Below, one piece after another: positions 15,069 to 44,363 of a stretch of 64,000 bases of DNA. The notes below the pieces were generated by a model. That model was not told the DNA's origin. It ran no database searches and saw only the letters and a program-made list of their open reading frames with translations. This stretch comes from a virus. The stretch covers positions 10,615 to 74,614 of IMG/VR virus record IMGVR_UViG_3300023179_009503; one strand, written 5' to 3'. Position 1 is the first letter of the stretch. Each line of letters starts with the position of its first letter. The translations under genes and the position numbers were made by a program.

Positions 15069-15332
15069 ATGAAATCAATAGGTCTATTCGAGTCTAGATT
15101 TTTAAGCCTTTTAGAACAAAATGTAGCTGGAGGTGGGGGTAGCGTTTTTGGTGTAGGGCCTGGTGGCGCTCCTGGGCAATACGGTAATCAATTCCCTTCT
15201 CAAAACGATACAGCCTATGCTCCAGGTGATGCTCGTATCCCAAAATTTTTAGGCTCAAAAAAGAAAAGAGGCAAAAAAGGTCCTTTTATACAGCGTAGGC
15301 CGCTTCCTGGATTAGAGCTAAAAAATAATTAA
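15069..15332 (+). CDS. Small protein carrying a copy of the major capsid protein N-arm
   Basis: Residues 38-59 YGNQFPSQNDTAYAPGDARIPK match gp23 residues 81-102; Lys/Arg-rich tail. Confidence 0.85.
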   Translation: MKSIGLFESRFLSLLEQNVAGGGGSVFGVGPGGAPGQYGNQFPSQNDTAYAPGDARIPKFLGSKKKRGKKGPFIQRRPLPGLELKNN

Positions 15333-15340
15333 GTAACTAC

Positions 15341-15766
15341 GTGGAACTAGGACACTGGATTTTAAGTGAAGGAATAACTATAGACGAAAATACCTTTGGG
15401 TTTATATATGAAATAACAAATACGGTTACAAATAAAAAGTATATTGGTAAAAAACAATGTAAATCAAAATTAAAAAGAAAACCATTAAAGGGTAAAAAAA
15501 ATAAAAGAATTGAAATAAAAGAATCGGATTGGAGAGAATATACAAGTTCTTCGACAGAGTTAAATGAAGACATTGTTAAGTATGGCAAATCTAAATTTAT
15601 TTTTAAAATACTTAAAACTTGCGGATCTAAGTGGGAATTAGCTTATAAAGAAATTTCAGAACAAATATCAAAACAAGTTCTACTTAGAGATGATTACTAT
15701 AATGGAATTATAAACGTAAGAATTGGACGTCCTCCAAAAAATTATCTTGAAAAGATTTTAGGTTGA
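15341..15766 (+). CDS. GIY-YIG domain nuclease (single domain)
   Basis: GFIYEITN...KKYIGKK...Y.SS...E...YYN. Confidence 0.8.
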   Translation: MELGHWILSEGITIDENTFGFIYEITNTVTNKKYIGKKQCKSKLKRKPLKGKKNKRIEIKESDWREYTSSSTELNEDIVKYGKSKFIFKILKTCGSKWELAYKEISEQISKQVLLRDDYYNGIINVRIGRPPKNYLEKILG

Positions 15767-16341: not shown

Positions 16342-16357
16342 TTTAATAAATAATAAT

Positions 16358-16804
16358 ATGACATTTACTGACAAGCTTAATGCATTGTTAAATACATTAA
16401 CAGAAGCGCCTCAACAAGATACAAATACACAGGATGCTGCAGCTCCTGCTCCTGCTGAAGAGCAACCTACTCCTGCTCAGCAGCCCGAACAAGCAGCTAT
16501 TCCCCCTGAAGGTTATGTAGATATGGTAAGGATGCTAGCTAAAGCATTAGTAATGAATATTCCTACTGGGACTATTGATTCGTTGTTCACAACCCCTATA
16601 ACTAAAGAAAACGCAACTACTGTTAGAGAAGGGCTTCAAAGCGCAATTAGATCTAGTGAAACTTCAGAAGATAATGCAATAAGATTGGGTAACCCCGCGT
16701 TTAAAAAATTCGAACAGTCAATAAATGAAAATAACTTTATGGCAAAGTATAAAGAAATTTTAAATGCTATGAAGAAATTTAGCAACGATCCTAAGCTGGG
16801 ATGA
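16358..16804 (+). CDS. Hypothetical, probable virion-internal protein
   Basis: TAAATA-N5-ATG at 16358; MTFTDKLNALLNTLTE|A propeptide-like N-terminus. Confidence 0.75.
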   Translation: MTFTDKLNALLNTLTEAPQQDTNTQDAAAPAPAEEQPTPAQQPEQAAIPPEGYVDMVRMLAKALVMNIPTGTIDSLFTTPITKENATTVREGLQSAIRSSETSEDNAIRLGNPAFKKFEQSINENNFMAKYKEILNAMKKFSNDPKLG

Positions 16805-16805
16805 T

Positions 16806-18392
16806 ATGGCTATCAAAAAAAATAAAAAGCCTTACAGGCCTTTATCTGAAATTTATTTAAAAGAGTCGTTTGCAAGACCTGTACCTTTGCTTCCTAGACA
16901 AACAATTTTAGGGGAAGCAAATGGAATGGCTGAAATATTAATTCAAAAAGACACCGGTGAAGATTTACCAGTATATAAAGTTCCTAATGAAGTGGCTGAT
17001 GAGGTTCTTAAGCGAATTAAAAGAGCAGAACAACAGTTAGGAGATAAAGAAGGGTTTACTGTTGATAAAATTATAGCCCAATGCTTAGAGCTAGACGGTT
17101 GGGCTGGTGAAGGCAAAGGTCAAAACAGTTCAGTATTTAGAGAGGTCGTCAATGCATTTAATGCAGTTGAGCTCAACTATAAAGAATTTAATAAGTTATT
17201 ATCTTTGCAAACGGATAAAGATAATCCTGTAAGAACTGTTTTACTTAATGACTTAAAGCCACATAGTATGGTTGAACTTCTTTCAGACAAATTTAAAGCT
17301 CTTTTTGCTGATCCTGCAGGAGCATTAACTGTACTGCAATCGCTTTGGAGATTAATACCTGATGGTGGTAAAAATGTAAATGTAGGTCCTGGAGAGCTAG
17401 CTTTAACATTAATTAGCGATGCAGTAAAAGGTAAAGAGGGAGACTTACAGTTTGATTTTGGATTAGTTGAAGTTAAAGGTAATAACGCAGCTTTAGGTTC
17501 CGGTAAATATGCAGTGGTTAATACTTATGAAGAGCTTAATAGAATTATGGCTTCTAAAATAGGCGGTGCATCTGTACGGGCTATAAATATCGATAGGCAA
17601 AAATCTATAATCTTAAATTTAATAGATGAACTTATAGCTCAATATGATAAATTTGTTGCAGACCCTGCATCGGTTAAAGCAACGCCTGCAGATACACAAT
17701 TGCATGTAAAAACTAGAGAGTTGCTTAAAAATCTTAAAATAAAAGCAAGCCAAGCTAAGAGTTTTCAGGAACTTGTAAGTGATGTACAAAACTCAGATCT
17801 TAAAGAAGTTAAAAAAACAAGAACAAAGACTCTTCCTGGAGAAAAGGCTATCCTTTTAAAAGAATTAGAATTATTAAGACGTGTAGAAGCAGGTGAGGTA
17901 ACCTCTATAGCCGGGGGTGAGAAAAGTAGATTTAACCCCGCAGTAAATGCATTTTTTAGTAATCCTAACCTTTCCGAAGAAAACAAATTGGAAGGAATAA
18001 AATTTATTGTTTCTGATGAAAAAACTAATAAAGATGAGGTAGCAGAAGTTGCAAAAGAGCTACTTTCATCTTACCCAGATTTATTGACATGGAAAAGTGT
18101 AGGTAAGTCTTATGAGGGCGATTCAACTTCGGATTTAAATAGGTTTATAGGTGCAGTACACTTAGCTGAATATCAACAAGAAAAGAAGTTTAAATACATA
18201 ATATTTTTTAATGCAGATAGAAAAGATATAAATAAATTGCCTACTAGAATAGTTGCGCTTAGTTTTGCTAACAGCTCATTTAAAGAAGATGTAAAGAGAG
18301 TATTCGAGTTTTTTAAAGATAAAGATATTAATGCTTCAGTAAAACTGGGTATCGATAATACTAGAGGGACCGTAAGGATTGCAATATCATGA
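16806..18392 (+). CDS. Hypothetical protein with PD-(D/E)XK-like nuclease motif
   Basis: GPGELAL...GDLQ...VEVKG; N-terminal YLKE|S. Confidence 0.6.
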   Translation: MAIKKNKKPYRPLSEIYLKESFARPVPLLPRQTILGEANGMAEILIQKDTGEDLPVYKVPNEVADEVLKRIKRAEQQLGDKEGFTVDKIIAQCLELDGWAGEGKGQNSSVFREVVNAFNAVELNYKEFNKLLSLQTDKDNPVRTVLLNDLKPHSMVELLSDKFKALFADPAGALTVLQSLWRLIPDGGKNVNVGPGELALTLISDAVKGKEGDLQFDFGLVEVKGNNAALGSGKYAVVNTYEELNRIMASKIGGASVRAINIDRQKSIILNLIDELIAQYDKFVADPASVKATPADTQLHVKTRELLKNLKIKASQAKSFQELVSDVQNSDLKEVKKTRTKTLPGEKAILLKELELLRRVEAGEVTSIAGGEKSRFNPAVNAFFSNPNLSEENKLEGIKFIVSDEKTNKDEVAEVAKELLSSYPDLLTWKSVGKSYEGDSTSDLNRFIGAVHLAEYQQEKKFKYIIFFNADRKDINKLPTRIVALSFANSSFKEDVKRVFEFFKDKDINASVKLGIDNTRGTVRIAIS

Positions 18393-19600
18393 TATCTTTT
18401 AAGCAATTTGTTCTTGAAGGAGGTGCAGCTGGTCATATGGCTCATCCGTTTGATTTGCCTAATGTAAATTCTGGCAAAGATCTTATTAATTTTTTTAATA
18501 AAGCTATTACCAGCTTAACAAAAAAGCCTGCTTCTGTAAAAATTGACGGTGTAAACACTTCTATTAAGCTAATTACGAATAGTGAGGGTAAAAAAGAGTT
18601 TGCTATGGATAGAGGCTCAAATAAACCTGAAGATATAGAAGGTGTTACAATAGCAAGATTAAGTCAAAGATTTCCTGAAGGGCATGGTATGTTAGAAACC
18701 GGTAAAACTGTTTTATCTATCTTCAATTCAGCTCTACCAAATATAGAGAAAGATTTAAAGAAATTAAAAATGTGGGATAATCCAAATATTCTTTTTAATA
18801 TGGAATTTGTTAAAGGCTCTACTAATGTTATAGGCTATGCAACTAACTTTGTAGCAATTCATGGGTTAAACGAAATTATTAAAGTCAAAAGTCCTGTTAG
18901 AGGCAGTGTGAGTAGAGCTTCAAGAGAAATAACTTATGATAAAAAAGCATTGCAGAGTTTAATAGAAAAAGTTAATCCTATTGCTAGAAAGCAAGGTTTT
19001 GATGTGGAGCATGAATTTACTATAAACTTAAAAGAAAAAGTCAATTTTAATAATGCGCTTGATTCCGATTTTACAGTAAATTACGATTCAAAAAACGCGA
19101 TTAAACAGCCCTTAAAAAATTGGCTTGCAAAAGCAAAGAACCCTAGAGCAGAAAAAATAAAATTAACTTCCGGAAAAACTATAAGCGCTATGAGCTTAGA
19201 AAACTTTAAAAATATATCTAGCGGTGTTCCTATGGATCATTATATCGGTAATAACAAAAAAGATATTGAAAAGGCTGTAAACGGTGCAGTATTTTATCAA
19301 GCAACAATTTTACTTGGTGATGCAGTAAAAAATGCTGCATCTTCTGCTTTAGGTTCTTTATCAGCACAAGAAGGTATAGTAATAAGAGATCCTTCAATTT
19401 CTAGCGCACCGGTTAAAATTACTGGAAGTTTTATAACGGGTAAAGAAGCTAGCAAATTCAGAAAGCAAGAAAATGAAGAGGGTATAAAAGGTGTTATATC
19501 TAATACCAATACTGTTTTAAACAAAACTAATTATCAAACTAACCCACCTTTTGGTAAGGAAGGTGCTAGATTAGTACAAACACCTGGAGTACAACTATGA
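18389..19600 (+). CDS. ATP-dependent (RNA) ligase-like nucleotidyltransferase, DUF6267-like
   Basis: Ligase motifs I SVKIDG, III NMEF, IIIa FVAIH, IV EGIVIR, V VKITG; N-terminus MISFKQFVLE|GGAAGHM. Confidence 0.65.
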   Translation: MISFKQFVLEGGAAGHMAHPFDLPNVNSGKDLINFFNKAITSLTKKPASVKIDGVNTSIKLITNSEGKKEFAMDRGSNKPEDIEGVTIARLSQRFPEGHGMLETGKTVLSIFNSALPNIEKDLKKLKMWDNPNILFNMEFVKGSTNVIGYATNFVAIHGLNEIIKVKSPVRGSVSRASREITYDKKALQSLIEKVNPIARKQGFDVEHEFTINLKEKVNFNNALDSDFTVNYDSKNAIKQPLKNWLAKAKNPRAEKIKLTSGKTISAMSLENFKNISSGVPMDHYIGNNKKDIEKAVNGAVFYQATILLGDAVKNAASSALGSLSAQEGIVIRDPSISSAPVKITGSFITGKEASKFRKQENEEGIKGVISNTNTVLNKTNYQTNPPFGKEGARLVQTPGVQL

Positions 19601-20253
19601 AATTTGACCAATTAGTAAATGAAATATTAATGCCTCAAAAGAATAATCTTATTGTTATTTTTCCAGGTAGGTTTCAGCCTTTTCATTTGGGGCATAAACG
19701 CTTTTATGATTTAGCAAAAAAGAAATTTCCGGGTGCTGATTTTTACATAGCTAGCTCTGATATACCGGAAAAAGCTGCAACTAAAGAGCCTGGTCGCTAT
19801 CCTTTTAATTTTGCAGAAAAAAAAGCTATTATGATAGCTGCAGGCATACCTGAAAAAGAAATTGTTCAGGTCAAACAACCTTACAAACCTATAGAAATTT
19901 TAAAAGACTATGATCAAAATTTTGCAAAAGTAATTTATATAGTTGGTGAAAAAGATATGAAAAAGGACCCTAGATTTGCATTTGGCATGACTAAAAAAGG
20001 AACCCCTACTTATTTTCAGCCTTTTAAAAGCTTAAACGAGTTACAGCCTTTTAAAGAAGACGGTGGCCATGGTTATATATACTCTCCTGGAACTATAGAA
20101 TTTAATGTTAACGGAAAAAATATTACTAGTGCATCTGAATTAAGAGAGCTATATAAAAATTCTAACGAGCAAAGTAAAAAAGAAATTATTACACAAATTC
20201 TAGGTAAATTCGATACAAAGATTTATAATCTATTTAACGCAAAAATTATTTAA
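19597..20253 (+). CDS. HIGH-family nucleotidyltransferase (cytidylyltransferase/NMNAT-like)
   Basis: FPGRFQPFHLGH, PFNFAEK, VGEKD, TSASELR. Confidence 0.85.
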   Translation: MKFDQLVNEILMPQKNNLIVIFPGRFQPFHLGHKRFYDLAKKKFPGADFYIASSDIPEKAATKEPGRYPFNFAEKKAIMIAAGIPEKEIVQVKQPYKPIEILKDYDQNFAKVIYIVGEKDMKKDPRFAFGMTKKGTPTYFQPFKSLNELQPFKEDGGHGYIYSPGTIEFNVNGKNITSASELRELYKNSNEQSKKEIITQILGKFDTKIYNLFNAKII

Positions 20254-20920: not shown

Positions 20921-21208
20921 ATGTTATTCGAAAAAGCTTTTCTACATGCTCTTGAACAAGATATAATTGAAGAAAAAAAAGGTGCCAGGTGTACTAAAGT
21001 TACAGGTCAGCAATCTTCTACTAGATCTGATAAAAAATATATGCGCTGTACACGTGTAGATGGTAAGTTGAAAAGAATACATTATGGCGATCCAAATTTA
21101 CGTATAAAAAAATCTAACCCCAAGAAACGTAAATCATTTAGAGCGCGTCATAAATGCTCGTCCGCAAAACCAGGTACTGCAAAATATTATAGTTGTAAGA
21201 ACTGGTAA
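20921..21208 (+). CDS. Basic Cys-containing small protein (DUF6321-like)
   Basis: YGDPNL...RKSFRARHKC...YYSCKNW; TATAAATA-N5-ATG at 20921. Confidence 0.75.
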   Translation: MLFEKAFLHALEQDIIEEKKGARCTKVTGQQSSTRSDKKYMRCTRVDGKLKRIHYGDPNLRIKKSNPKKRKSFRARHKCSSAKPGTAKYYSCKNW

Positions 21209-21639: not shown

Positions 21640-22302
21640 GTGCAGTCGTTTAAAGAATTTTATGATAAGCCAGTATTCGGAGTTAATGAGCTCATCGAAA
21701 TTGATGGTATTGGAAAACTAAAAGCTAAAGTAGATAGTGGTAATGAAGCATATAACGTTTTGCATGGAGTAGATATATCTGAAGAAGGTGAAAATGTCAC
21801 CTTCACTACCGTTAACGACAAAAAAATAACAAAACCTAAAACAGGCTCTATAACCATCCATATTGGGAGTGGAGTAAAGGAAGAAAGACCGACGGTTGAA
21901 TTCGATATTAAGGTAGACGGGAAGCAGTATAATGGTGTGACATTTAGTATAGCTGATAGATCAGAGAATGAAGATCCTATTTTAGTGGGAGAACCCTTTT
22001 TGAAGAAATTAAACGCTGTTATTGATGTTAATAAGGATCAAGTACATGAATCAATAAAATATAAAGTTGTTGCTTTAAATAAAAAGGATAAGCTTGCAAA
22101 AGATTGGAAAAGGTCTAGTTATTCAGAAAATGCAATTCGTGCAATAGCTAATAAACAAAAGACACTAATTGTTAATAAACACGGTAGTCCAAAATTTAAA
22201 GGCAAAGAAACATTAAAAATCTTTAACCCAATTACTAAAAAACCTTTTATTATTTTAAAGAAAAAATTAAAAGCCTCTGAATCCGATACTCCTCAAGATT
22301 AA
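21640..22302 (+). CDS. Retropepsin-like aspartic protease (RimK-associated type)
   Basis: AKVDSGN, EERP, FSIADR...ILVG; GTG start after TAAATA-N5. Confidence 0.75.
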   Translation: MQSFKEFYDKPVFGVNELIEIDGIGKLKAKVDSGNEAYNVLHGVDISEEGENVTFTTVNDKKITKPKTGSITIHIGSGVKEERPTVEFDIKVDGKQYNGVTFSIADRSENEDPILVGEPFLKKLNAVIDVNKDQVHESIKYKVVALNKKDKLAKDWKRSSYSENAIRAIANKQKTLIVNKHGSPKFKGKETLKIFNPITKKPFIILKKKLKASESDTPQD

Positions 22303-35151: not shown

Positions 35152-36783
35152 GTGTTTAGCAGATATTTACTACATTTTCCTAAAGAGTATAATCCGAGCT
35201 CACAGCAAGTTAAACTTATTAAAGGTGTGGAAAAAGCTTTTAATAATGGCAAGAAATTTGTAATTTGTTGTGCACCGACAGGGACAGGAAAGAGCTTTTT
35301 AGCTAAAACGTTATCTGGATTAAGTTCAGCCCCTACTGATAGATTCAAACATAACATTACCACATACTCTGCATATAAACAAGATTTTGCGGGTAATTAT
35401 ATTAACGAGGTCGATTGCCTGTCACAGCCACCTTTTGGTACATTTGCATTAACTATAACTAAATCATTACAAGATCAATATTTAAATTTATTTCCGGATA
35501 CAGATATCTTAAAAGGTAAAACAAACTATCTCTGTGACATCGATAATAATTTTGATGTAGAGACTGCTCCATGTGTACTTGTGTCAAAAATTAAAGATGA
35601 ATGCTGGGAGAAAAATAGATGTCCATATTATAATGCTAGAAATAGCGCACTATTATCGAAGTTTGCAGTTTTAAACTATAAGATGTTTATGACATTGCCA
35701 AGTCATGTTAAGAGAAAAAACTTTATAATATGCGATGAGGCTTCAGAGTTAGAAGATGAATTGATAAAAAGATTCTCTGCAGAAATTACATATGATAAAT
35801 TACGCAGCTACGGGGTAGAGTGTAGAACGTTAATAACTGATGATCGTAGTAAAATTCGTGCATGGATGTATGATTTATTGTTTAATATAAGCGAGCAAAT
35901 AAATGTATTAATTAATCGCGCTAATAAAAAACATAGAACATTATCACAGCCAGAAAAAATAAAAATGCAATACCTCAAGACTGTGCATAATTCACTTACA
36001 ACAGTTGACGGGCTTTGGCGCGATGTTGAATATATTATTGACAAAGACACTAAAAAAGTTACATTAACGCCTCTCAAAGCTGACAAATTAACAAAATTTA
36101 TTTTTGACTATGCAGATAATGTTTTACTAATGTCGGCTACAATTATTGATCATAAAAATTTTGCAAAAACTTTAGGTATTAAAGACTATGAGTATGTAGA
36201 GGTAGATAGTGATTTTGATCCCCAGAAATCACCAATTTACGTTTCATCAAAACATAAGTTAAATTATAAAAATCTTACCAATATATTACCACAGATTTGT
36301 GAACAAATAAAAGTTATAACAGAGCATCATAAGACAGAAAAAGGTATTATACATACTCATTCGAATGAAATAACAAAATTTATAAAAACAAAGTTAGCAA
36401 ATAATTCAAGATTTTTGTTTAGAGATGAAATCTCGAATAACGAAGATATATTAAAAGAGCACTATGATACTACGCAGCCCAGCGTTTTAGTATCTCCTTC
36501 GCTAGCTTTCGGTGTAGATCTTAAAGATCATCTTGCAAGATTTCAAATATTAGTAAAAATGCCTTATCCATCTCTTTCCTGTAAGCGTATTAAAAAAATG
36601 TTTGAAACAGACAAAAACTGGTATGAGAATAAAATGTTAAATGCGCTAGTACAAGCATGTGGACGTGCTACACGTAGTAAAAATGATTTTTCAACTACAT
36701 ATATACTTGATGGTAATGCTGTTAACGTTTTAAAAAGAACAAAAGATAAGTTACCAAAAACCTTTATTGACCGTATTTGTTAA
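35152..36783 (+). CDS. DinG/YoaA-family SF2 helicase
   Basis: Q motif, APTGTGKS, Cys cluster, CDEAS, MSATI, GVDL, QACGRATR. Confidence 0.9.
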   Translation: MFSRYLLHFPKEYNPSSQQVKLIKGVEKAFNNGKKFVICCAPTGTGKSFLAKTLSGLSSAPTDRFKHNITTYSAYKQDFAGNYINEVDCLSQPPFGTFALTITKSLQDQYLNLFPDTDILKGKTNYLCDIDNNFDVETAPCVLVSKIKDECWEKNRCPYYNARNSALLSKFAVLNYKMFMTLPSHVKRKNFIICDEASELEDELIKRFSAEITYDKLRSYGVECRTLITDDRSKIRAWMYDLLFNISEQINVLINRANKKHRTLSQPEKIKMQYLKTVHNSLTTVDGLWRDVEYIIDKDTKKVTLTPLKADKLTKFIFDYADNVLLMSATIIDHKNFAKTLGIKDYEYVEVDSDFDPQKSPIYVSSKHKLNYKNLTNILPQICEQIKVITEHHKTEKGIIHTHSNEITKFIKTKLANNSRFLFRDEISNNEDILKEHYDTTQPSVLVSPSLAFGVDLKDHLARFQILVKMPYPSLSCKRIKKMFETDKNWYENKMLNALVQACGRATRSKNDFSTTYILDGNAVNVLKRTKDKLPKTFIDRIC

Positions 36784-36794
36784 TAAATAATAGT

Positions 36795-39421: not shown

Positions 39422-39444
39422 CATTCAATTAAATAAATATTGAT

Positions 39445-40521
39445 ATGGATTGCTCTGCTATTACTCCTATAACAGCGTTTCAAAGCACTAATCTTAGTAG
39501 CAAAATAGATTCTTTCTCTAGATTAGGTGACAGAATTTCCCGTACATTAGGTGCGCCAATGATAAATTTAGAAATACATCATGATCAACTATTTGAAAAT
39601 ATTTCTATAGCTTGCGAAATGTTTGCAAAGTTTGCCGGGTATACAGAAGAATATCTTATATTTGATTCAGATCTTTATGAAAAAAATAAAGGATTAAAAC
39701 TGGATGAGTTATTTACTATTACACCTTATTTTAATAAGGTAATCGACCCTTCACCCACAGTTTATGCCGCCACTTCTTCTATTCCATCTAGTTATTTCCT
39801 AACTTCACCTACTCTTTCTTCAACTTATAAAGATGGTATTTTTGAGAATCAAATACTAACACAGACAAATTATTTATCTGTAATTAATTTTAATGGCGTA
39901 CTAGGTGAATACTTTAAACCTTCTTCTAATTCACAAATTAAATTTGTTAATAGTTTTGATTATGATATTATGGACTACAGAAAAGTAGTTGATATAATAG
40001 ATTTTGAAGAAGGATCATCTACTGGTGTTAATACCTTATTTACAATTGAGCAAACACTGGCGCAGCAAACATATTTTAGCTATGCAATGGGTAATTACGG
40101 TTTTGATCTTGTTAGCTGGTATGTATTAAAAGACTGGCTTGAAACGCGTGAAAAGCTTTTAGCAATAAGAAGATATTTCACGTTTGATGATAGAACTCAG
40201 TATCTTACTTTTTACCCACCACCTAAAACTCCAAGCTCAGGCTCTAGATTTTATGGTATAATAGGTGCATATGTTGAGAAAAGATTAAAAGATATTATTA
40301 AAGAACCTTGGGTCTATCAATATGCATTAGCATTAAGCAAGATAGCTGTTGGTAATGTAAGAGGTAAATATACCGGTACAACGATGTTCGGTGGTGGGCA
40401 AATAAATTATAACGATCTATTATCTCAGGGATTGAGGGAAAAAGAAGAATTAGAAAGAAAGCTTTACGAAAGCGCGCCTGGCTTTGGAGATGCTGCTCCA
40501 CCTCAATTTTTTGTTGGATAA
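39445..40521 (+). CDS. gp13: Neck protein (gp13-like)
   Basis: LGAPMINLE...WVYQYALAL.K...G..RGKY....GG.IN...E...LE...P.FFVG. Confidence 0.85.
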   Translation: MDCSAITPITAFQSTNLSSKIDSFSRLGDRISRTLGAPMINLEIHHDQLFENISIACEMFAKFAGYTEEYLIFDSDLYEKNKGLKLDELFTITPYFNKVIDPSPTVYAATSSIPSSYFLTSPTLSSTYKDGIFENQILTQTNYLSVINFNGVLGEYFKPSSNSQIKFVNSFDYDIMDYRKVVDIIDFEEGSSTGVNTLFTIEQTLAQQTYFSYAMGNYGFDLVSWYVLKDWLETREKLLAIRRYFTFDDRTQYLTFYPPPKTPSSGSRFYGIIGAYVEKRLKDIIKEPWVYQYALALSKIAVGNVRGKYTGTTMFGGGQINYNDLLSQGLREKEELERKLYESAPGFGDAAPPQFFVG

Positions 40522-40982
40522 TGATACCCTTAAATAAAAGCGATAAATTTAGACAGGGATTATTTCGTCCAAAAAATACGAGTAAATACGTTGGCCGCAC
40601 TCCACCAGTTTATAGATCAGGGTGGGAATTAAAATTTTTTAGATGGTGTGATGAGAATACTAATGTAGTTGAATGGGCAAGCGAGGCAGTAATAATACCT
40701 TATACAAATCCGCTAGATGGTAAAGTTCATAGATATTATACTGATGGTATAATTGCTATTAAAGAAAATGGTATATTAAACAAATATATTATAGAAATTA
40801 AACCATCTACTCAAGTAGAAGCTCCAAAACCTGGCAAAAAAAAGCATAGTACTGTAATTTATGAAAATAAGAGATATATACAGAATATGGCTAAGTGGGA
40901 ATCTGCTAAAAAGTGGTGTAACCAAAGAAATTATAAATTCTTAATATTAACAGAAAAAGAATTGGGACTTAATAAATATTAA
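40521..40982 (+). CDS. gp4: Head completion nuclease (gp4, TnsA-like)
   Basis: PKN..KY.G, YRSGWE..F..WCD, WASE...IPY, HRYYTD, IEIKP, AKW. Confidence 0.92.
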   Translation: MIPLNKSDKFRQGLFRPKNTSKYVGRTPPVYRSGWELKFFRWCDENTNVVEWASEAVIIPYTNPLDGKVHRYYTDGIIAIKENGILNKYIIEIKPSTQVEAPKPGKKKHSTVIYENKRYIQNMAKWESAKKWCNQRNYKFLILTEKELGLNKY

Positions 40983-40983
40983 T

Positions 40984-41655
40984 ATGGCGCTTCGTCTACT
41001 AGTCGAAACACCTGCTTCTGAAGAGCAGTTTGAATATATTTTAGAGGAAAAAAACCCTAAAGAGCCCGCAAAACTCTATATTCAAGGTCCTTACATGGTT
41101 TGTAATGAAGTAAATAAGAACCAGCGTATTTACGAGCGTGATGATATGCGTCGTGAAGTTGAACGCTATATAAAAGAAATGGTTTCAACAAACAGAGCGA
41201 TGGGCGAGCTTAATCATCCCACATCCGCAGAAGTTAATCTAGAGAGAGCCTGCCATCTTGTTACAAATTTAAAATTTGAAGGAAACCAGGTAGTAGGAAG
41301 ATCACAAGTACTTTCAACACCGATGGGTCAGATTGTACGTAATCTTATCAATGATGGTGTAAAGGTAGGAATGTCTAGCCGCGCACTTGGAAAATTAAAT
41401 GAAGAAACAAATGGTATTAATCGTGTAACAGATATGAGATTAATTGCTGTTGATTGTGTAGCTGATCCGTCATGCCCTAAAGCATTTGTAAATGGAATAT
41501 TAGAAAGCAAGCAATTTATTTTAAATACTAAAGGTGAACTAGAAGAAGTTTATGATGCTTTCGAAAAATCTATTAATAATTTACCTCGAAAAGACGTACA
41601 AGCTTATTTAAAAGAGCAAATTTTGACGTTTTTTAAATTTTTAAGAACTACTTAA
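40984..41655 (+). CDS. gp21: Prohead maturation protease (gp21)
   Basis: NKNQRIY, GELNHP, TPMG, GMSSRALG, DCVADPS...AFV. Confidence 0.95.
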   Translation: MALRLLVETPASEEQFEYILEEKNPKEPAKLYIQGPYMVCNEVNKNQRIYERDDMRREVERYIKEMVSTNRAMGELNHPTSAEVNLERACHLVTNLKFEGNQVVGRSQVLSTPMGQIVRNLINDGVKVGMSSRALGKLNEETNGINRVTDMRLIAVDCVADPSCPKAFVNGILESKQFILNTKGELEEVYDAFEKSINNLPRKDVQAYLKEQILTFFKFLRTT

Positions 41656-41877: not shown

Positions 41878-42762
41878 ATGGAAACAAACATTAGCAAAAC
41901 TCTAAAAGAAGCGACTAAAGATATTCTCACAGAGGATGTTCTTAAGGAAATCGAAACTGCATTTGAAACATCAGTTAATGAAAAAGTTCAAATTCATGTT
42001 GAGAAAGCTCTCGCTGAACAAGATGCTGATTATTCCAAAAAATTAGAGACTTTAGTAGAAGCAATAGATACAGATCATACCAACAAGCTTAAGAAGGTTG
42101 TTGAAGCAATTGATGCTGATCGTGCTGCTAAGCTAAAGACGGTAGTAGAAAAATATGAAGCAGCATTGAATAAAGAAGCTTCTGAGTTCAAGAATAGCAT
42201 TGTTGATGAAATAAGCAAATATCTTGATCTCTATATTGATGAAAAACTACCCTCAGCTTCAATTACTGAAGCTGTAAAGAATAAAAAGGCTATTTCTCTT
42301 TTAGAGAATTTACGCCAGGTTCTTGCTGTTGATATGGCACTCGCTAAGGATAATATCCGCGATGCTGTAGTTGATGGGAAGAATAAAATAGATGAAGCTG
42401 CTAGCCAGCTTGAAGCCGCTACAAAAGAAGTAGCTAGATTGTCAGAAGAGAATAAGAAGCTCTCCGCTAAAGTAATGCTTGAGGAAAGAGTTTCTAAGCT
42501 CGAAGAAGACAAAAAGACTTACATGAAGAAAATGCTTAATGGTAAGTCTGCAGAGTTTATTAAAGAGAACTTTGACTACACTTTGAAGCTGTTTGAAAAG
42601 ACAGAAGAAGAGCGGCTGAAAGCATTAAAAACGGAAGCGGTTTCTGAAACTGTATCTGCACAAGTTGATAGACCAGTAATTGAAGAAGCTGTACAGCCCC
42701 AGGAAGTAAATGAAGCAGATCCAATGTTTAATACTTACATGGGCGAGCTTTCGAAGTATTAA
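41878..42762 (+). CDS. gp22: Prohead scaffold protein (gp22)
   Basis: Glu/Lys-rich coiled coil, C-terminal DPM..Y; directly upstream of MCP. Confidence 0.88.
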   Translation: METNISKTLKEATKDILTEDVLKEIETAFETSVNEKVQIHVEKALAEQDADYSKKLETLVEAIDTDHTNKLKKVVEAIDADRAAKLKTVVEKYEAALNKEASEFKNSIVDEISKYLDLYIDEKLPSASITEAVKNKKAISLLENLRQVLAVDMALAKDNIRDAVVDGKNKIDEAASQLEAATKEVARLSEENKKLSAKVMLEERVSKLEEDKKTYMKKMLNGKSAEFIKENFDYTLKLFEKTEEERLKALKTEAVSETVSAQVDRPVIEEAVQPQEVNEADPMFNTYMGELSKY

Positions 42763-42839: not shown

Positions 42840-44363
42840 ATGGCTAAACAAATTCGTCCTACACAGGCTTACATTGATGAGTCACGCGCTAAGGTACTTC
42901 TCGAGAAGTGGGGTCCAGTTCTGGATTACTCTTCCGATAACGTCCGCGCTATCGAAGACGATCACACACGCTTAAACACCGCTATCCTTTTGGAAAACCA
43001 AGAGAAGTGGTGCTTTGAGGCTAGCAACACAGTCGGTGGAAACACTGGCGTATTCGGCGGCGCTATTAATAATGGCGCTTACGGTAACCAGTTCCCTTCA
43101 CAGAATGATAATGCTTACGCCCCAGGCGATGCGCGTCTACCGAAGATCCTCATCCCGATGATTCGCCGTACGTTCCCTGAGTTGATCACTAACGAAATCG
43201 TTGGTGTTCAGCCCATGAGCGGTCCAGTAGGTCTTGCTTTTGCCCTCCGTTATAAGTACGAACCCACCAGCTTAGGTTACAATCCCGATGGCAAGATCGA
43301 CGCAAGCAACTCTACAACAAAGTATGCTAGCTCGTTCTTACAGTCATTGTCGACAAACCCTGAGCTAGGGTATCAGTTCCTCGCTTCCGGCTTTACCGGA
43401 ACGCAGCAGCCACAATTGTCGGGTAATTCCGACTTCACAATGCTAACACAAGATCAGGGTGTTGCTCAGCTACTCGGCCAGTTCGAGTTGAATGCAAACA
43501 TTCCTCAGGTCGTTGTAAGCTTTGAGAAGACAGCAGTCGAGGCCGGCACACGCCGTCTCGCCGCTCGCTGGTCAGTTGAGCTCGAGCAGGATCTTAAGAA
43601 CATGAACGGTATCGATATCGATACTGAGCTCACAAACGCTATGTCGTATGAGCTACAGGCCGAAATCGACCGTGAAATGATCATTCGCATGATCCAGACA
43701 GCACTCAATGCTGGCTACGGCACAGGTTATTCAATCTGGTCGCCCGTATCAGCAGACGGTCGCTGGCTCGTTGAACGTAATCGTGACTTCTATCAGAGAC
43801 TAATCGTCGAAGCTAATCGTATTGCAGTACGTAATCGCCGTGGTTCTGCCAACTTCGTTGTTGCAACACCTCGCGTTTGCGCTATCCTAGAAATGCTCCC
43901 TGAATTCCAGTGGGTACCAGTACAGGGTAATGTTAATACACAGCCCGTCGGTGTTGCAAAAGTAGGTTCGCTGGGTGGCAGGTTCAACGTTTACCGTGAT
44001 ACTCGTACAGAAGCTCAGGCTGAAGCTTATAATACTGGTGGCATCCCTCCTGGTAATTTCCAGGGTCAGGGCTGGCCAACAGCTTATGGCACCCAGAACT
44101 TCTCGCGTCAAGTACGCCTCGAGTATGCACTCCTTGGTTACAAGGGCCCGGAATTCTACGACACTGGTATCATCTATTGTCCGTACATCCCGGTAATGGT
44201 TCAGAGAACGATTGGTCCTAATGATTTTGCTCCTCGCGTTGGCTTACTAACACGTTATGGTGTAGTAGACAACATCTTTGGTGCTAATCTTTACTACCAC
44301 GTCATTATTCTCAAGAACCTCGGTACTCCGTTTGTTCCTGGAACACAGTCGGTCTACTTCTAA
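42840..44363 (+). CDS. gp23: Major capsid protein (gp23)
   Basis: LLENQ, IRRTFP, GVQPMSGPVGLAFALR, RRLAARWSVELEQDLK, EIDRE, YCPYIP, TRYG. Confidence 0.98.
   Translation: MAKQIRPTQAYIDESRAKVLLEKWGPVLDYSSDNVRAIEDDHTRLNTAILLENQEKWCFEASNTVGGNTGVFGGAINNGAYGNQFPSQNDNAYAPGDARLPKILIPMIRRTFPELITNEIVGVQPMSGPVGLAFALRYKYEPTSLGYNPDGKIDASNSTTKYASSFLQSLSTNPELGYQFLASGFTGTQQPQLSGNSDFTMLTQDQGVAQLLGQFELNANIPQVVVSFEKTAVEAGTRRLAARWSVELEQDLKNMNGIDIDTELTNAMSYELQAEIDREMIIRMIQTALNAGYGTGYSIWSPVSADGRWLVERNRDFYQRLIVEANRIAVRNRRGSANFVVATPRVCAILEMLPEFQWVPVQGNVNTQPVGVAKVGSLGGRFNVYRDTRTEAQAEAYNTGGIPPGNFQGQGWPTAYGTQNFSRQVRLEYALLGYKGPEFYDTGIIYCPYIPVMVQRTIGPNDFAPRVGLLTRYGVVDNIFGANLYYHVIILKNLGTPFVPGTQSVYF

Follow-up and report, generated by a model that had tools for sequence, protein, structure and literature searches.

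In the window analysed here (the whole stretch of viral DNA, 64,000 nucleotides), four coupled genes, coding for proteins termed P1 to P4, can be read as a late-transcribed cassette of head-internal, injected proteins, in which P3 and P4 would carry out adenylyl transfer for counter-defence. We put the probability of this reading at about 0.6. P1 to P4 are probably injected with the DNA, because their N-terminal tags match the head-loading signal of T4.

Organization and expression of the operon

The phage is an uncultured, divergent T4-like myovirus. According to the ORF list and coordinates, the operon spans positions 16358-20253 (Table 1). P2/P3 and P3/P4 overlap by ATGA, at 18389 and 19597 respectively, and a single nucleotide lies between P1 and P2. 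A sequence-only reading of this DNA had described four coupled genes behind a single promoter box; the four ORFs, both overlaps and the box were all found.

The box, AATAAATA, is likely a late-type promoter of the phage, as a motif and not a mapped transcription start. Its spacing is kept in 24 related loci, including those with another upstream gene, and the box-N5-start arrangement occurs at 33 ORFs of the genome, among them the gp21 protease, gp15 and other head and tail genes. Because this conserved box is common to head and tail genes, late expression of the operon is likely.

Table 1. Positions of the operon features and of the head-assembly genes in the window (a slash marks the putative cleavage point)
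Feature	Positions	Strand	Remarks
AATAAATA late-promoter-like box	16345..16352	+	5 nt upstream of the P1 ATG
P1 ORF	16358..16804	+	148 aa, counted from ATG
P2 ORF	16806..18392	+	528 aa
P2 long leader, ..KKPYRPLSEIYLKE/SFARPVPLLPRQTILGE/A	16806..16928	+	about 41 aa, of a type (about 35 aa) conserved among slot proteins
P3 ORF	18389..19600	+	403 aa
P3 CTS-like decapeptide, MISFKQFVLE/GG	18389..18418	+	match to T4 IPII/IPIII at positions 4, 7, 8 and 10
P4 ORF	19597..20253	+	218 aa
P4 CTS-like leader, MKFDQLVNE/IL	19597..19623	+	among 23 separate P4 genes, 21 have the Glu
gp21-type prohead serine protease	40984..41655	+	Pfam Peptidase_S77, 6e-35
gp22-like scaffolding core protein	41878..42762	+	Pfam T4_CASP below cut-off; 24 [LIVM]xE sites
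gp23 major capsid protein	42840..44363	+	Pfam Gp23, 3e-88, match from residue 101

N-terminal leaders and the T4 capsid targeting sequence

In T4, the ipII and ipIII products start with MKTYQEFIAE, and that of ipI with MKTFKEF. Mapping of the T4 capsid targeting sequence (CTS) assigned residues 4 and 7 to targeting and residues 8 and 10 to processing (PMC9026906). P3 has F4, F7, V8 and E10 at these positions, and in P4 the set recurs with an offset of one residue. Of the 97 genes, three have a strict N-terminal pattern derived from the T4 CTS, where 0.17 would be expected (P = 7e-4); P3 and P4 are among the three. The propeptide-like N-termini previously picked out from the letters read exactly as described. 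One P4 orthologue (locus L024) is without the leader Glu.

The P3 leader, disordered in the AF2 model, appears separable from the domain behind it; many P3 homologues begin exactly at MGGAAGHM, without a leader. Comparison of related loci further suggests that the leaders are modular. The P2-type leader of about 35 residues is kept over non-homologous bodies (55-80% identity between the leaders of slot proteins, the bodies being 20-34% identical or unalignable). In other phages it also precedes the P3 domain, replacing the short leader (locus L025 is an example).

The P1 and P2 leaders show no match to the 10-residue T4 CTS, and what speaks for them as tags is that they are conserved and, by analogy, that ipI has a leader of 19 residues. 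Leaders of the CTS type are also carried by cyanophage homologues of P4 (MKNFSSFLTE in S-CREM2, MKSFLQFLKE in S-SCSM1), the same MK.F..FL.E leader being present in those of Syn9 and P-SSM2; a clear leader is absent from Syn9 gp183. In phage Melnitz-3, four consecutive genes have CTS-like leaders.

P1, P2 and the hypervariable slot

P1 is acidic (pI 4.8). Behind its 16-residue leader, MTFTDKLNALLNTLTE/A, come a linker rich in Pro, Ala and Gln and a C-terminal domain that is conserved. It has no match in Pfam, PHROG or NCBIfam. In 27 of 80 related loci a homologue is found at this position, with the L-x-E of residues 14-16 retained.

A search of 5.8 billion proteins returned no more than 9 close homologues of P2. 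The PD-(D/E)XK-like motif proposed earlier for its GE...D...EVK stretch corresponds to E197, D213 and E222-x-K224, and an alignment of 24 sequences shows no variation in six columns, G194, E197, G212, D213, E222 and K224. The nuclease assignment is borne out at the motif level only. Structure prediction and Foldseek, which had been suggested as a check, gave an AF2 model of pLDDT 83, with low values of 48-63 in the leader, and only weak Rai1/DXO matches (E~0.2); a helical insert at 256-364 dominates what the fold searches return. The body of P2 may thus be described as PD-(D/E)XK nuclease-like at the level of its motif. Sequence comparison indicates that P2 lies in a hypervariable, fast-evolving slot where the leader is kept and the body swapped or diverged.

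P3, a ligase-like nucleotidyltransferase, and P4, an HxGH nucleotidyltransferase

P3 is a basic protein (pI 9.6) in which the ligase motifs recognized earlier (KIDG, E, F, EGIVIR, VK) stand in order. In 54 homologues, K51, D53 and G54 of the K51-x-D53-G54 motif are invariant, and conservation at E139, E328, G329 and K343 reaches 90% or more. The predicted ligase-like fold agrees with this. For the AF2 model (pLDDT 86.7), every one of the top 25 VIA structure matches is a ligase or a capping enzyme, the best being T4 Rnl1 (Z 8.8) and other RNA ligases matching at Z 6.5-7.5, about 1-2 lower. One of the matches in BFVD is annotated 'RnlA RNA ligase 1 and tail fiber attachment catalyst'. P3 is tied to Pfam DUF6267 via Atlas, its score against the Pfam DUF6267 model itself being below reach. 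Taken together, the alignments and the model point to a divergent covalent (lysine) nucleotidyltransferase, RNA-ligase-like and sister of DUF6267. P3 shares its nucleotidyltransferase core fold with ATP-dependent RNA ligases (T4 Rnl1, Naegleria Rnl, the fungal Trl1 ligase domain, T4 Rnl2 and REL1), as well as motif I KxDG followed by motifs III, IV and V in order, at an identity of about 12-16%. Unlike these ligases, it has an insert of 125 residues that separates motif IIIa from motif IV, a single lysine in motif V and an N-terminal element, GGAAGHM.HPFD, that is invariant, and it is without a recognizable C-terminal or OB domain.

P4 is likewise basic (pI 9.4). Its GRFQPFHLGH segment, previously taken as the signature of a HIGH nucleotidyltransferase, matches Pfam CTP_transf_like (PF01467) above the cut-off (30.3 bits against 21, E 5e-7), and PDB 2qjo (NadM-Nudix) is matched with E 0.0016. 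That P4 is an HxGH (HIGH) nucleotidyltransferase, closest to the NadM-type NMNAT, therefore holds. With NadM-type NMN adenylyltransferases it shares GRFQPFHxGH, a C-terminal SxSxxR-type motif (TSASELR in P4) and the PF01467 fold family. However, NCBIfam NMNAT models match it weakly (19-21 bits), far under every equivalog cut-off (127-397), and it has no Nudix domain. No NadV partner for P4 was seen in the operon.

Conservation of the P3-P4 pair

P4 adjoins P3 in 68 of 80 related viral loci, and 36 fused ORFs occur among these loci, in both orders. A CTP_transf_like match is present in 13 of 54 long P3 homologues, and phage Mel-JY01 has a P3-P4 fusion (hhalign 98.3%). Adjacent or fused in most of the 80 loci, P3 and P4 form a conserved two-enzyme unit, as the proposed examination of gene neighbourhoods brings out.

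The counterpart of the pair in cultured cyanophages is Syn9 gp183/gp184, where gp183 (DUF6267, 1e-98) adjoins gp184; pairs of this type are adjacent in at least 10 further cultured phages. The 'cytidyltransferase' or NMNAT-like virion-associated protein of cyanophages (Syn9 gp184, P-SSM2 PSSM2_194, S-SCSM1 ORF91, S-CREM2 ORF154) is, as P4, an HxGH nucleotidyltransferase with an MK.F..FL.E leader, and it adjoins a KxDG/EG.V/K ligase-like protein (DUF6267, Syn9 gp183) as P4 adjoins P3. Sequence similarity between the two pairs is distant only (P4 and S-CREM2 gp154, BLASTP E 8e-5 over 43 aa), and the cyanophage NMNAT-like proteins, at 286-424 aa, are longer than P4 and contain additional linker and C-terminal segments. 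Neither the CTS nor the ligase fold is mentioned for the cyanophage proteins in PMC10665884 and PMC9602691.

More distant P3 homologues lie within multidomain proteins of 600-1600 aa, together with HxGH, Amidase_2, GNAT, Tad3 and retropepsin-like domains. They fit the theme of injected multi-enzyme effectors set out for polyvalent phage proteins (Iyer et al., 2017, PMC5512222). Unlike in those proteins, the domains are here separate genes, each with its own leader. RNA ligases were not seen associated with polyvalent 2H domains (PMC5512222), and a term search of that paper returned no mention of adenylyltransferases.

Evidence for packaging in the head

Packaging of the operon proteins is well supported, if indirectly, by sequence and analogy. 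The earlier proposal that the enzymes are packaged and injected gains from the CTS match of P3 and P4, the presence of gp21 and gp22, the late-type box and, by analogy, the leader-bearing cyanophage homologues detected by MS: the NMNAT-like homologues of S-CREM2 and S-SCSM1 were detected in virions (PMC10665884, PMC9602691). The gp21-type protease would be expected to cleave on the C-terminal side of the leader Glu; its own N-terminus, MALRLLVE/T, parallels the LIE-9 site of T4 gp21 (PMC9026906 for the T4 site), and the N-terminal propeptide of gp23 has LLE at residues 20-22 and 50-52. The basic charge of P3 and P4 (pI 9.4-9.6) is also counted in favour of packaging.

The closest known system is that of T4 IPI, IPII, IPIII and Alt, which are CTS-targeted, processed by gp21 and injected. 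Their leaders have an aromatic or hydrophobic residue at 4 and 7, an aliphatic one at 8 and Glu at 10, as here, and a gp21-type protease and gp22 scaffold are encoded in both genomes. Like the P2 slot, the T-even IP loci combine a conserved leader with a hypervariable member, and Alt is an enzyme cargo, as proposed here. Unlike T4 IPs, the cargo would comprise large enzymes (ligase-like, NMNAT-like and nuclease-like) in one operon; the P1 and P2 leaders (16 and about 41 aa) are longer than the T4 CTS, and mature P1-P4 are without sequence similarity to any T4 IP or Alt.

Alternative interpretations

It is conceivable, albeit rather unlikely, that P1 to P4 are ordinary late cytoplasmic proteins whose N-terminal segments are native amphipathic helices, their likeness to the CTS being convergent or compositional. 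A bare [LIVM]xE within the first 20 residues is common by chance (about 30%, an estimate); the observed match nevertheless falls on the four functionally mapped CTS positions, with an enrichment of P = 7e-4. Most P4-P3 fusions in related loci start with MKIIAIYPGRFQPF, without a leader, and the leaderless ones retain an internal hydrophobic-x-E segment before GGAAGHM. Since fusions in both orders keep this segment internally, it could belong to the domain family instead of being a targeting tag, whereas the disorder of the P3 leader, its absence from many homologues starting at MGGAAGHM and the conservation of a 35-residue leader over unrelated bodies argue for a tag. Likewise, NMNAT-like homologues were found repeatedly in the virions of four cyanophages (PMC9602691), but the authors of the MS papers warn that late proteins present in abundance may be carried along when virions are purified (PMC10665884, PMC9602691).

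Other enzymatic roles can also be considered. P4 could be a true cytidylyltransferase making an activated sugar or polyol (e.g. CDP-glycerol), which P3 would attach or process on virion proteins or modified phage DNA, late, in the producing cell. This seems improbable: the Pfam family of P4 does include sugar and polyol cytidylyltransferases, the genome has a PHROG glycosyltransferase match and expression appears late, yet among named proteins P4 is closest to NMNATs and not to TagD-type enzymes, the fold of P3 is that of polynucleotide ligases and capping enzymes and not of a glycosyl- or phosphotransferase, the pair is unlinked to glycosyltransferases in the 80 loci, and the leaders are left unexplained. 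Very little probability is given to P3 being, like T4 gp63 (Rnl1), a late assembly helper with an RNA-ligase fold, for instance in tail-fibre attachment, and not an injected enzyme. T4 Rnl1 also promotes tail-fibre attachment, and it is the best structural match of P3 (Z 8.8); the similarity is, however, limited to the shared nucleotidyltransferase core, with other RNA ligases at Z 6.5-7.5, the catalytic residues of P3 are invariant, and its obligate pairing or fusion with an HxGH enzyme would be unexplained.

Proposed mechanism

In the packaged-cassette reading, the leader of each product would attach it to the gp22-type scaffolding core while the prohead assembles, in the manner of the T4 CTS, and the gp21-type protease would then cleave after the leader Glu. 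Mature P1-P4 would be retained in the head and enter the cell together with the DNA. P1 would be delivered as an acidic protein and P2, with its nuclease-like body, as the current occupant of a fast-evolving slot, while the P3-P4 pair may transfer adenylyl groups as soon as infection begins. The targets suggested in the sequence-only reading, tRNA repair and NAD+ or signal handling, are conjectural. Two tasks seem likeliest for the pair: to seal or adenylylate a nucleic-acid end that bears a 5'-phosphate, and to produce a dinucleotide of the NAD type, each of which would serve in counter-defence.

Candidate capsid targeting signals in the operon

In T4, the first 10 residues of the internal protein IPIII suffice for head targeting, positions 4 and 7 (Tyr/Phe in T4) serving targeting and positions 8 and 10 processing (PMC9026906). 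This capsid targeting sequence (CTS) reads MKTYQEFIAE/A in ipII and ipIII and MKTFKEF…ITE/A in ipI (the slash marks the expected cut site). The leader of P3, that is, its N-terminal segment ending in Glu, reads MISFKQFVLE/G and carries all four mapped positions (F4, F7, V8 and E10). In the leader of P4, MKFDQLVNE/I, the same positions are shifted by one residue (F3, L6, V7 and E9), and both proteins thus show the targeting as well as the processing residues. The 10-residue CTS is not matched by the leader of P1 or by that of P2. A pattern built from the four CTS positions was found at 3 of 97 gene starts, with 0.17 expected (P = 7e-4). In the 120 P3 homologues listed, the N-terminus follows MxxFKQFLLE-GGAAGHMxHPFDLP with almost no exceptions, and nearly all have Glu before GGAAGHM. 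Orthologue leaders include MKSFYEFILE, MKTFSQFILE and MKTFKQYISE, and 21 of 23 P4 genes keep the leader Glu.

The same tag is borne by P4 homologues of cyanophages, namely Syn9 (MKKFSAFLSE/A), P-SSM2 (MKSFSQFLTE/T), S-SCSM1 (MKSFLQFLKE/A) and S-CREM2 (MKNFSSFLTE/A, behind TATAAATA). Mass spectrometry of purified virions detected S-SCSM1 ORF91 (PMC9602691) and S-CREM2 ORF154 (PMC10665884), and both papers remark on the 'frequent detection' of proteins of this kind in virions of cyanophages (PMC10665884, PMC9602691). Products of neighbouring genes in S-SCSM1 and S-CREM2 were also detected in virions. Moreover, four consecutive genes of the Methylophilales phage Melnitz-3 (locus L156, 704-5367) begin with CTS-like decapeptides: MQGFKTFLSE, (L)INFSKYITE in a DUF6267-like second gene, MKKFSELTSE, and MKKFSEIIE in a fourth gene encoding an HxGH protein. 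As a cultured T4-like phage with four such genes in a row, Melnitz-3 makes a tractable model for packaging tests.

Fused forms of the two proteins argue against packaging. Most P4-P3 fusions open with strand 1 of the HxGH fold, yet an LLxE segment is found inside them, ahead of GGAAGHM, and the P4 leader is retained inside P3-P4 fusions. These internal leader-like segments can mean retained protease sites of a polyprotein, or else parts of a domain. Syn9 gp183 has no clear leader. Overall, what the sequence-only reading had observed is confirmed, and its proposal that the operon encodes capsid-packaged enzymes injected with the DNA is supported by sequence and by analogy, virion detection being that of the homologues.

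Genome setting and probable late expression

The 74.6-kb IMG/VR record of which the window is a part is that of a divergent T4-like myovirus, whose major capsid protein shows a best identity to gp23 of cultured phages of only ~32%. Genes in the window include those for a gp20 portal, the gp21 prohead protease (Peptidase_S77), a gp22-like scaffold, gp23, gp15, DNA polymerase and gp46/47-like SbcC/SbcD subunits. A gp21-type protease and a gp22-type scaffold, both expected of a CTS system, occur in the same genome, and the N-terminus of the protease, MALRLLVE/T, mirrors the LIE-9 site of T4 gp21. The TnsA-like and SegE-type endonucleases (see table) are probably homing endonucleases. The 87-aa late ORF next to segE repeats the gp23 segment GxYGNQFPSQNDxAYAPGDARxPK (residues ~78-103 of the phage's own gp23) behind the leader MKSIGLFESRFLSLLE/Q, and its position ahead of segE is shared by 24 related loci.

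Coordinates of the operon and of the features discussed (positions in the window)
Feature	Position	Strand	Remarks
87-aa late ORF	15069-15332	+	
SegE-type GIY-YIG endonuclease	15341-15766	+	two genes upstream of operon
AATAAATA box	16345-16352		promoter-like
P1	16358-16804	+	148 aa
P2	16806-18392	+	528 aa
TATAAATA boxes inside P2	17582-17589, 18227-18234	+	exact
P3	18389-19600	+	403 aa
P4	19597-20253	+	218 aa
95-aa very basic, Cys-containing protein	20921-21208	+	late box; leader MLFEKAFLHALE/Q
220-aa protein	21640-22302	+	GTG start; begins MQSFKEFYDK…; weak Zn_protease match (PF05618, retropepsin-like)
TnsA-like endonuclease gene	40521-40982	+	directly 5' of gp21 protease gene
gp21-type prohead protease	40984-41655		Pfam Peptidase_S77, 6e-35
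gp22-type scaffolding core	41878-42762		Pfam T4_CASP 7.5e-5, below cut-off
NATAAATA examples	36782-36794, 39432-39444, 40971-40983		
CTS-like late-box genes	2546, 20921, 21640, 23805, 28954		
CTS-like late-box genes	20888, 59071, 61145	-	
CTS-like late-box gene	-6935		record position relative to window

The four ORFs, with their lengths, two ATGA overlaps and N-termini as originally described, are all present in the sequence. The promoter-like box AATAAATA precedes the P1 start with a 5-nt spacer, a spacing that recurs in 24 related loci, five of them with a different upstream gene. Throughout the genome, ATAAATA lies just 5' of an ORF in 33 of its 47 occurrences, mostly with a spacer of ~5 nt, and 33 ORFs have NATAAATA ~5 nt ahead of their start codon (ATG, GTG or TTG). 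Such an arrangement implies late promoters with near-leaderless mRNAs. Among the ORFs so preceded are those of the gp21 protease and gp15 and further structural genes, the conserved AATAAATA box being common to head and tail genes; it looks like the late promoter of this phage. P2 contains two exact TATAAATA boxes. The one 155 nt before the P3 start could drive P3 and P4 independently of the gene at the P2 position.

P3, a ligase-like relative of DUF6267

More than 1378 homologues of P3 were found in metagenomes. A tblastn search with P3 returned no homologue from 50,697 phage records, and the operon and P3, used as DNA and protein queries against these records, found nothing; relatives among cultured phages surfaced only via structure, the Atlas clusters and a fusion protein of phage Mel-JY01. 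Sequence searches of the PDB with P3 and its profile gave no match.

Ligase motifs had been read in P3 in the expected order, and motifs I, III, IV (E328-G329-x-V331) and V (K343) do follow one another, motif V having one lysine, not two. In an alignment of 54 diverse sequences, H19, K51, D53, G54, N56, D74, D82, G85, N146, R176 and G310 are invariant, and conservation reaches 90% or more at E139, E328, G329, V331 and K343. Motif I of 54 long P3 homologues keeps its lysine and glycine invariant and its aspartate at least 90% conserved. The AF2 model (pLDDT 86.7; residues 1-11 and 360-403 disordered) was submitted to an exhaustive structural search (VIA-align), in which the top 25 matches were all ligases or capping enzymes, in agreement with the fold proposed earlier. 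RNA ligases rank first, with Z-scores of 8.8 for T4 Rnl1 (rmsd 4.1 over 185 aligned residues), 7.5 for Naegleria Rnl, 7.3 for Trl1 and 6.9 for Rnl2 and REL1. Foldseek against the PDB gave weak matches (E 0.02) to the same nucleotidyltransferase family. The KxDG motif, motifs III, IV and V and the modelled core fold point to a covalent nucleotidyltransferase, and P3 is a putative lysyl-NMP enzyme. The modelled structure stops near residue 355, with no OB-fold or other nucleic-acid-binding C-terminal domain; for lack of an OB domain, the readings of P3 as a DNA ligase and as a capping enzyme were rejected.

In a protein-language search, the neighbours of P3 were Atlas clusters in which 21-24% of the members carry Pfam DUF6267. 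P3 itself did not match DUF6267 (PF19782) above the cut-off, and it is placed as a sister group of DUF6267, not a scored member. Direct hhalign comparison of Syn9 gp183 with the P3 profile was weak (36%); the link is based on Pfam, Atlas, motifs and synteny. No mention of DUF6267 was found in the papers searched.

P4 and the P3-P4 unit

The GRFQPFHLGH segment singled out in P4 by the sequence-only reading belongs to a Pfam CTP_transf_like domain (PF01467, 30.3 bits for a cut-off of 21), and the protein has the C-terminal motif TSASELR. Its nearest named relatives are NadM-type NMNATs. NMNAT equivalog models gave 19-21 bits, none reaching its cut-off (127-397). P4 is thus best described as a predicted NMNAT-like HxGH nucleotidyltransferase.

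The neighbourhood is conserved, P4 adjoining P3 in 68 of 80 related viral loci, and 36 ORFs fuse the two in both orders. Among the 475 proteins recovered by an all-against-library HMMER search, many are of 500-1600 aa and combine an HxGH domain with the P3 domain. CTP_transf_like is present in 13 of the 54 long P3 homologues, single members of which carry, among others, a Tad3 or a retropepsin-like Zn_protease domain; Amidase_2 and GNAT domains are also joined to the P3 domain. The Tad3 domain (Pfam PF25185, E 8.6e-29) occurs in one long protein of the alignment of 54 distant homologues. Tad3 is a phage Thoeris inhibitor that binds the ThsB sensor (PMC13728456). Among cultured phages, Microcystis phage Mel-JY01 encodes a 640-aa P4-P3 fusion (hhalign 98.3%) ~2.6 kb upstream of the terminase gene, and Syn9 encodes gp183, a DUF6267 protein (1e-98), and gp184, a cyanophage 'cytidyltransferase'. 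The gp183- and gp184-type families were found in 467 and 557 phage records, respectively, and at least 10 of the records that both searches listed have them side by side. P3 and P4 make up a single functional unit. The surroundings of an 1181-aa fusion (locus L131) hold only a primase and unknown genes, and a viral-contig scan with the fusion protein P0187 gave no match.

A hypervariable slot between P1 and P3

Only nine close homologues of P2 were found. Where P1, P3 and P4 are 65-85% identical to those of the window, the gene in the slot between P1 and P3 keeps its leader, KKPYKSLxxIYLxESFAKPVPxLPRQ…E, at 55-80% identity, and the bodies behind this conserved leader are 20-34% identical or unalignable. 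Pfam, PHROG and NCBIfam gave no match for P1, for P2 or for ten further slot proteins, and the genes flanking the P3-P4 pair in Syn9, S-SCSM1 and Melnitz-3 are not homologous to P2. Other phages have this long leader directly in front of the P3 domain, for instance at locus L025, where the slot body is absent; the leader is therefore a transferable module.

The nuclease-like motif reported in P2 withstood comparison, E197, D213, E222 and K224 being invariant in 24 sequences 18-64% identical to P2; G194, G212 and Y456 are likewise invariant in the alignable set. Around the motif, the model has a helix (197-202), three strands (214-216, 219-224 and 228-230) and a second helix (235-251), to be compared with the alpha-beta-beta-beta-alpha-beta core of PD-(D/E)XK nucleases. 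Fold searches with the model were captured by a helical insert (256-364), and the best Foldseek matches, to Rai1/DXO enzymes, were weak (E~0.2). At the motif level, P2 carries a PD-(D/E)XK-type signature. With its conserved leader and changing body, nuclease-like here, the slot is a candidate counterpart of the T-even internal-protein loci, which it resembles.

Other candidate head-loaded proteins

At least nine further late-box genes have CTS-like leaders ending in Glu, such as MKYNDIILE/S, MRFDDLVNFLLE/D, MNKDTKLIFE/A and MLFEKAFLHALE/Q. Judging by these leaders, the number of different proteins loaded into the head may reach a dozen or more. The 95-aa basic protein, which has no family match, is 82-93% identical among close relatives, and in 36 of 80 loci, distant ones included, its gene lies no more than a few kb from P3. 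A homologue of the 220-aa protein comes after P4 in locus L064, and PF05618 recurs in one distant homologue as a fusion with the P3 domain.

Possible function and significance

The pairing of P3 and P4, their basic charge (pI 9.4-9.6) and the fusions with Tad3 and peptidoglycan amidase domains fit an early role in counter-defence. The likeliest activities would be adenylylation or sealing of RNA or DNA ends and synthesis of an NAD-type dinucleotide. NAD+ salvage of the NARP2 type was rejected as the whole story, no NadV-like partner having been found in the operon. It can be proposed that the T4 capsid targeting signal is ancient and in wide use among aquatic T4-like phages (Kyanoviridae and relatives), loading into the head a conserved unit of two enzymes, one of them DUF6267 RNA-ligase-like and the other NMNAT-like. 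The unit would act before phage gene expression, either to restore an NAD-type cofactor or to mend or cap a nucleic-acid end that host defences have cleaved, beside a hypervariable arms-race slot for an injected nuclease-like protein. We give this full proposal a probability of roughly one in three.

With respect to the literature consulted for this topic, three points are new: the link to the CTS, a ligase fold for the DUF6267-type partner and the hypervariable leader-plus-body slot. The slot is a candidate arms-race locus in which counter-defence proteins could be sought, and the tags, if they work as in T4, could serve to load the heads of environmental T4-like phages with proteins. DUF6267, widespread in marine T4-like phages, gains a putative ligase-type fold and catalytic lysine. 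Finally, a T4-type tag would explain how NMNAT-like 'cytidyltransferases' reach cyanophage virions, a recurrent and so far unexplained result of proteomics.
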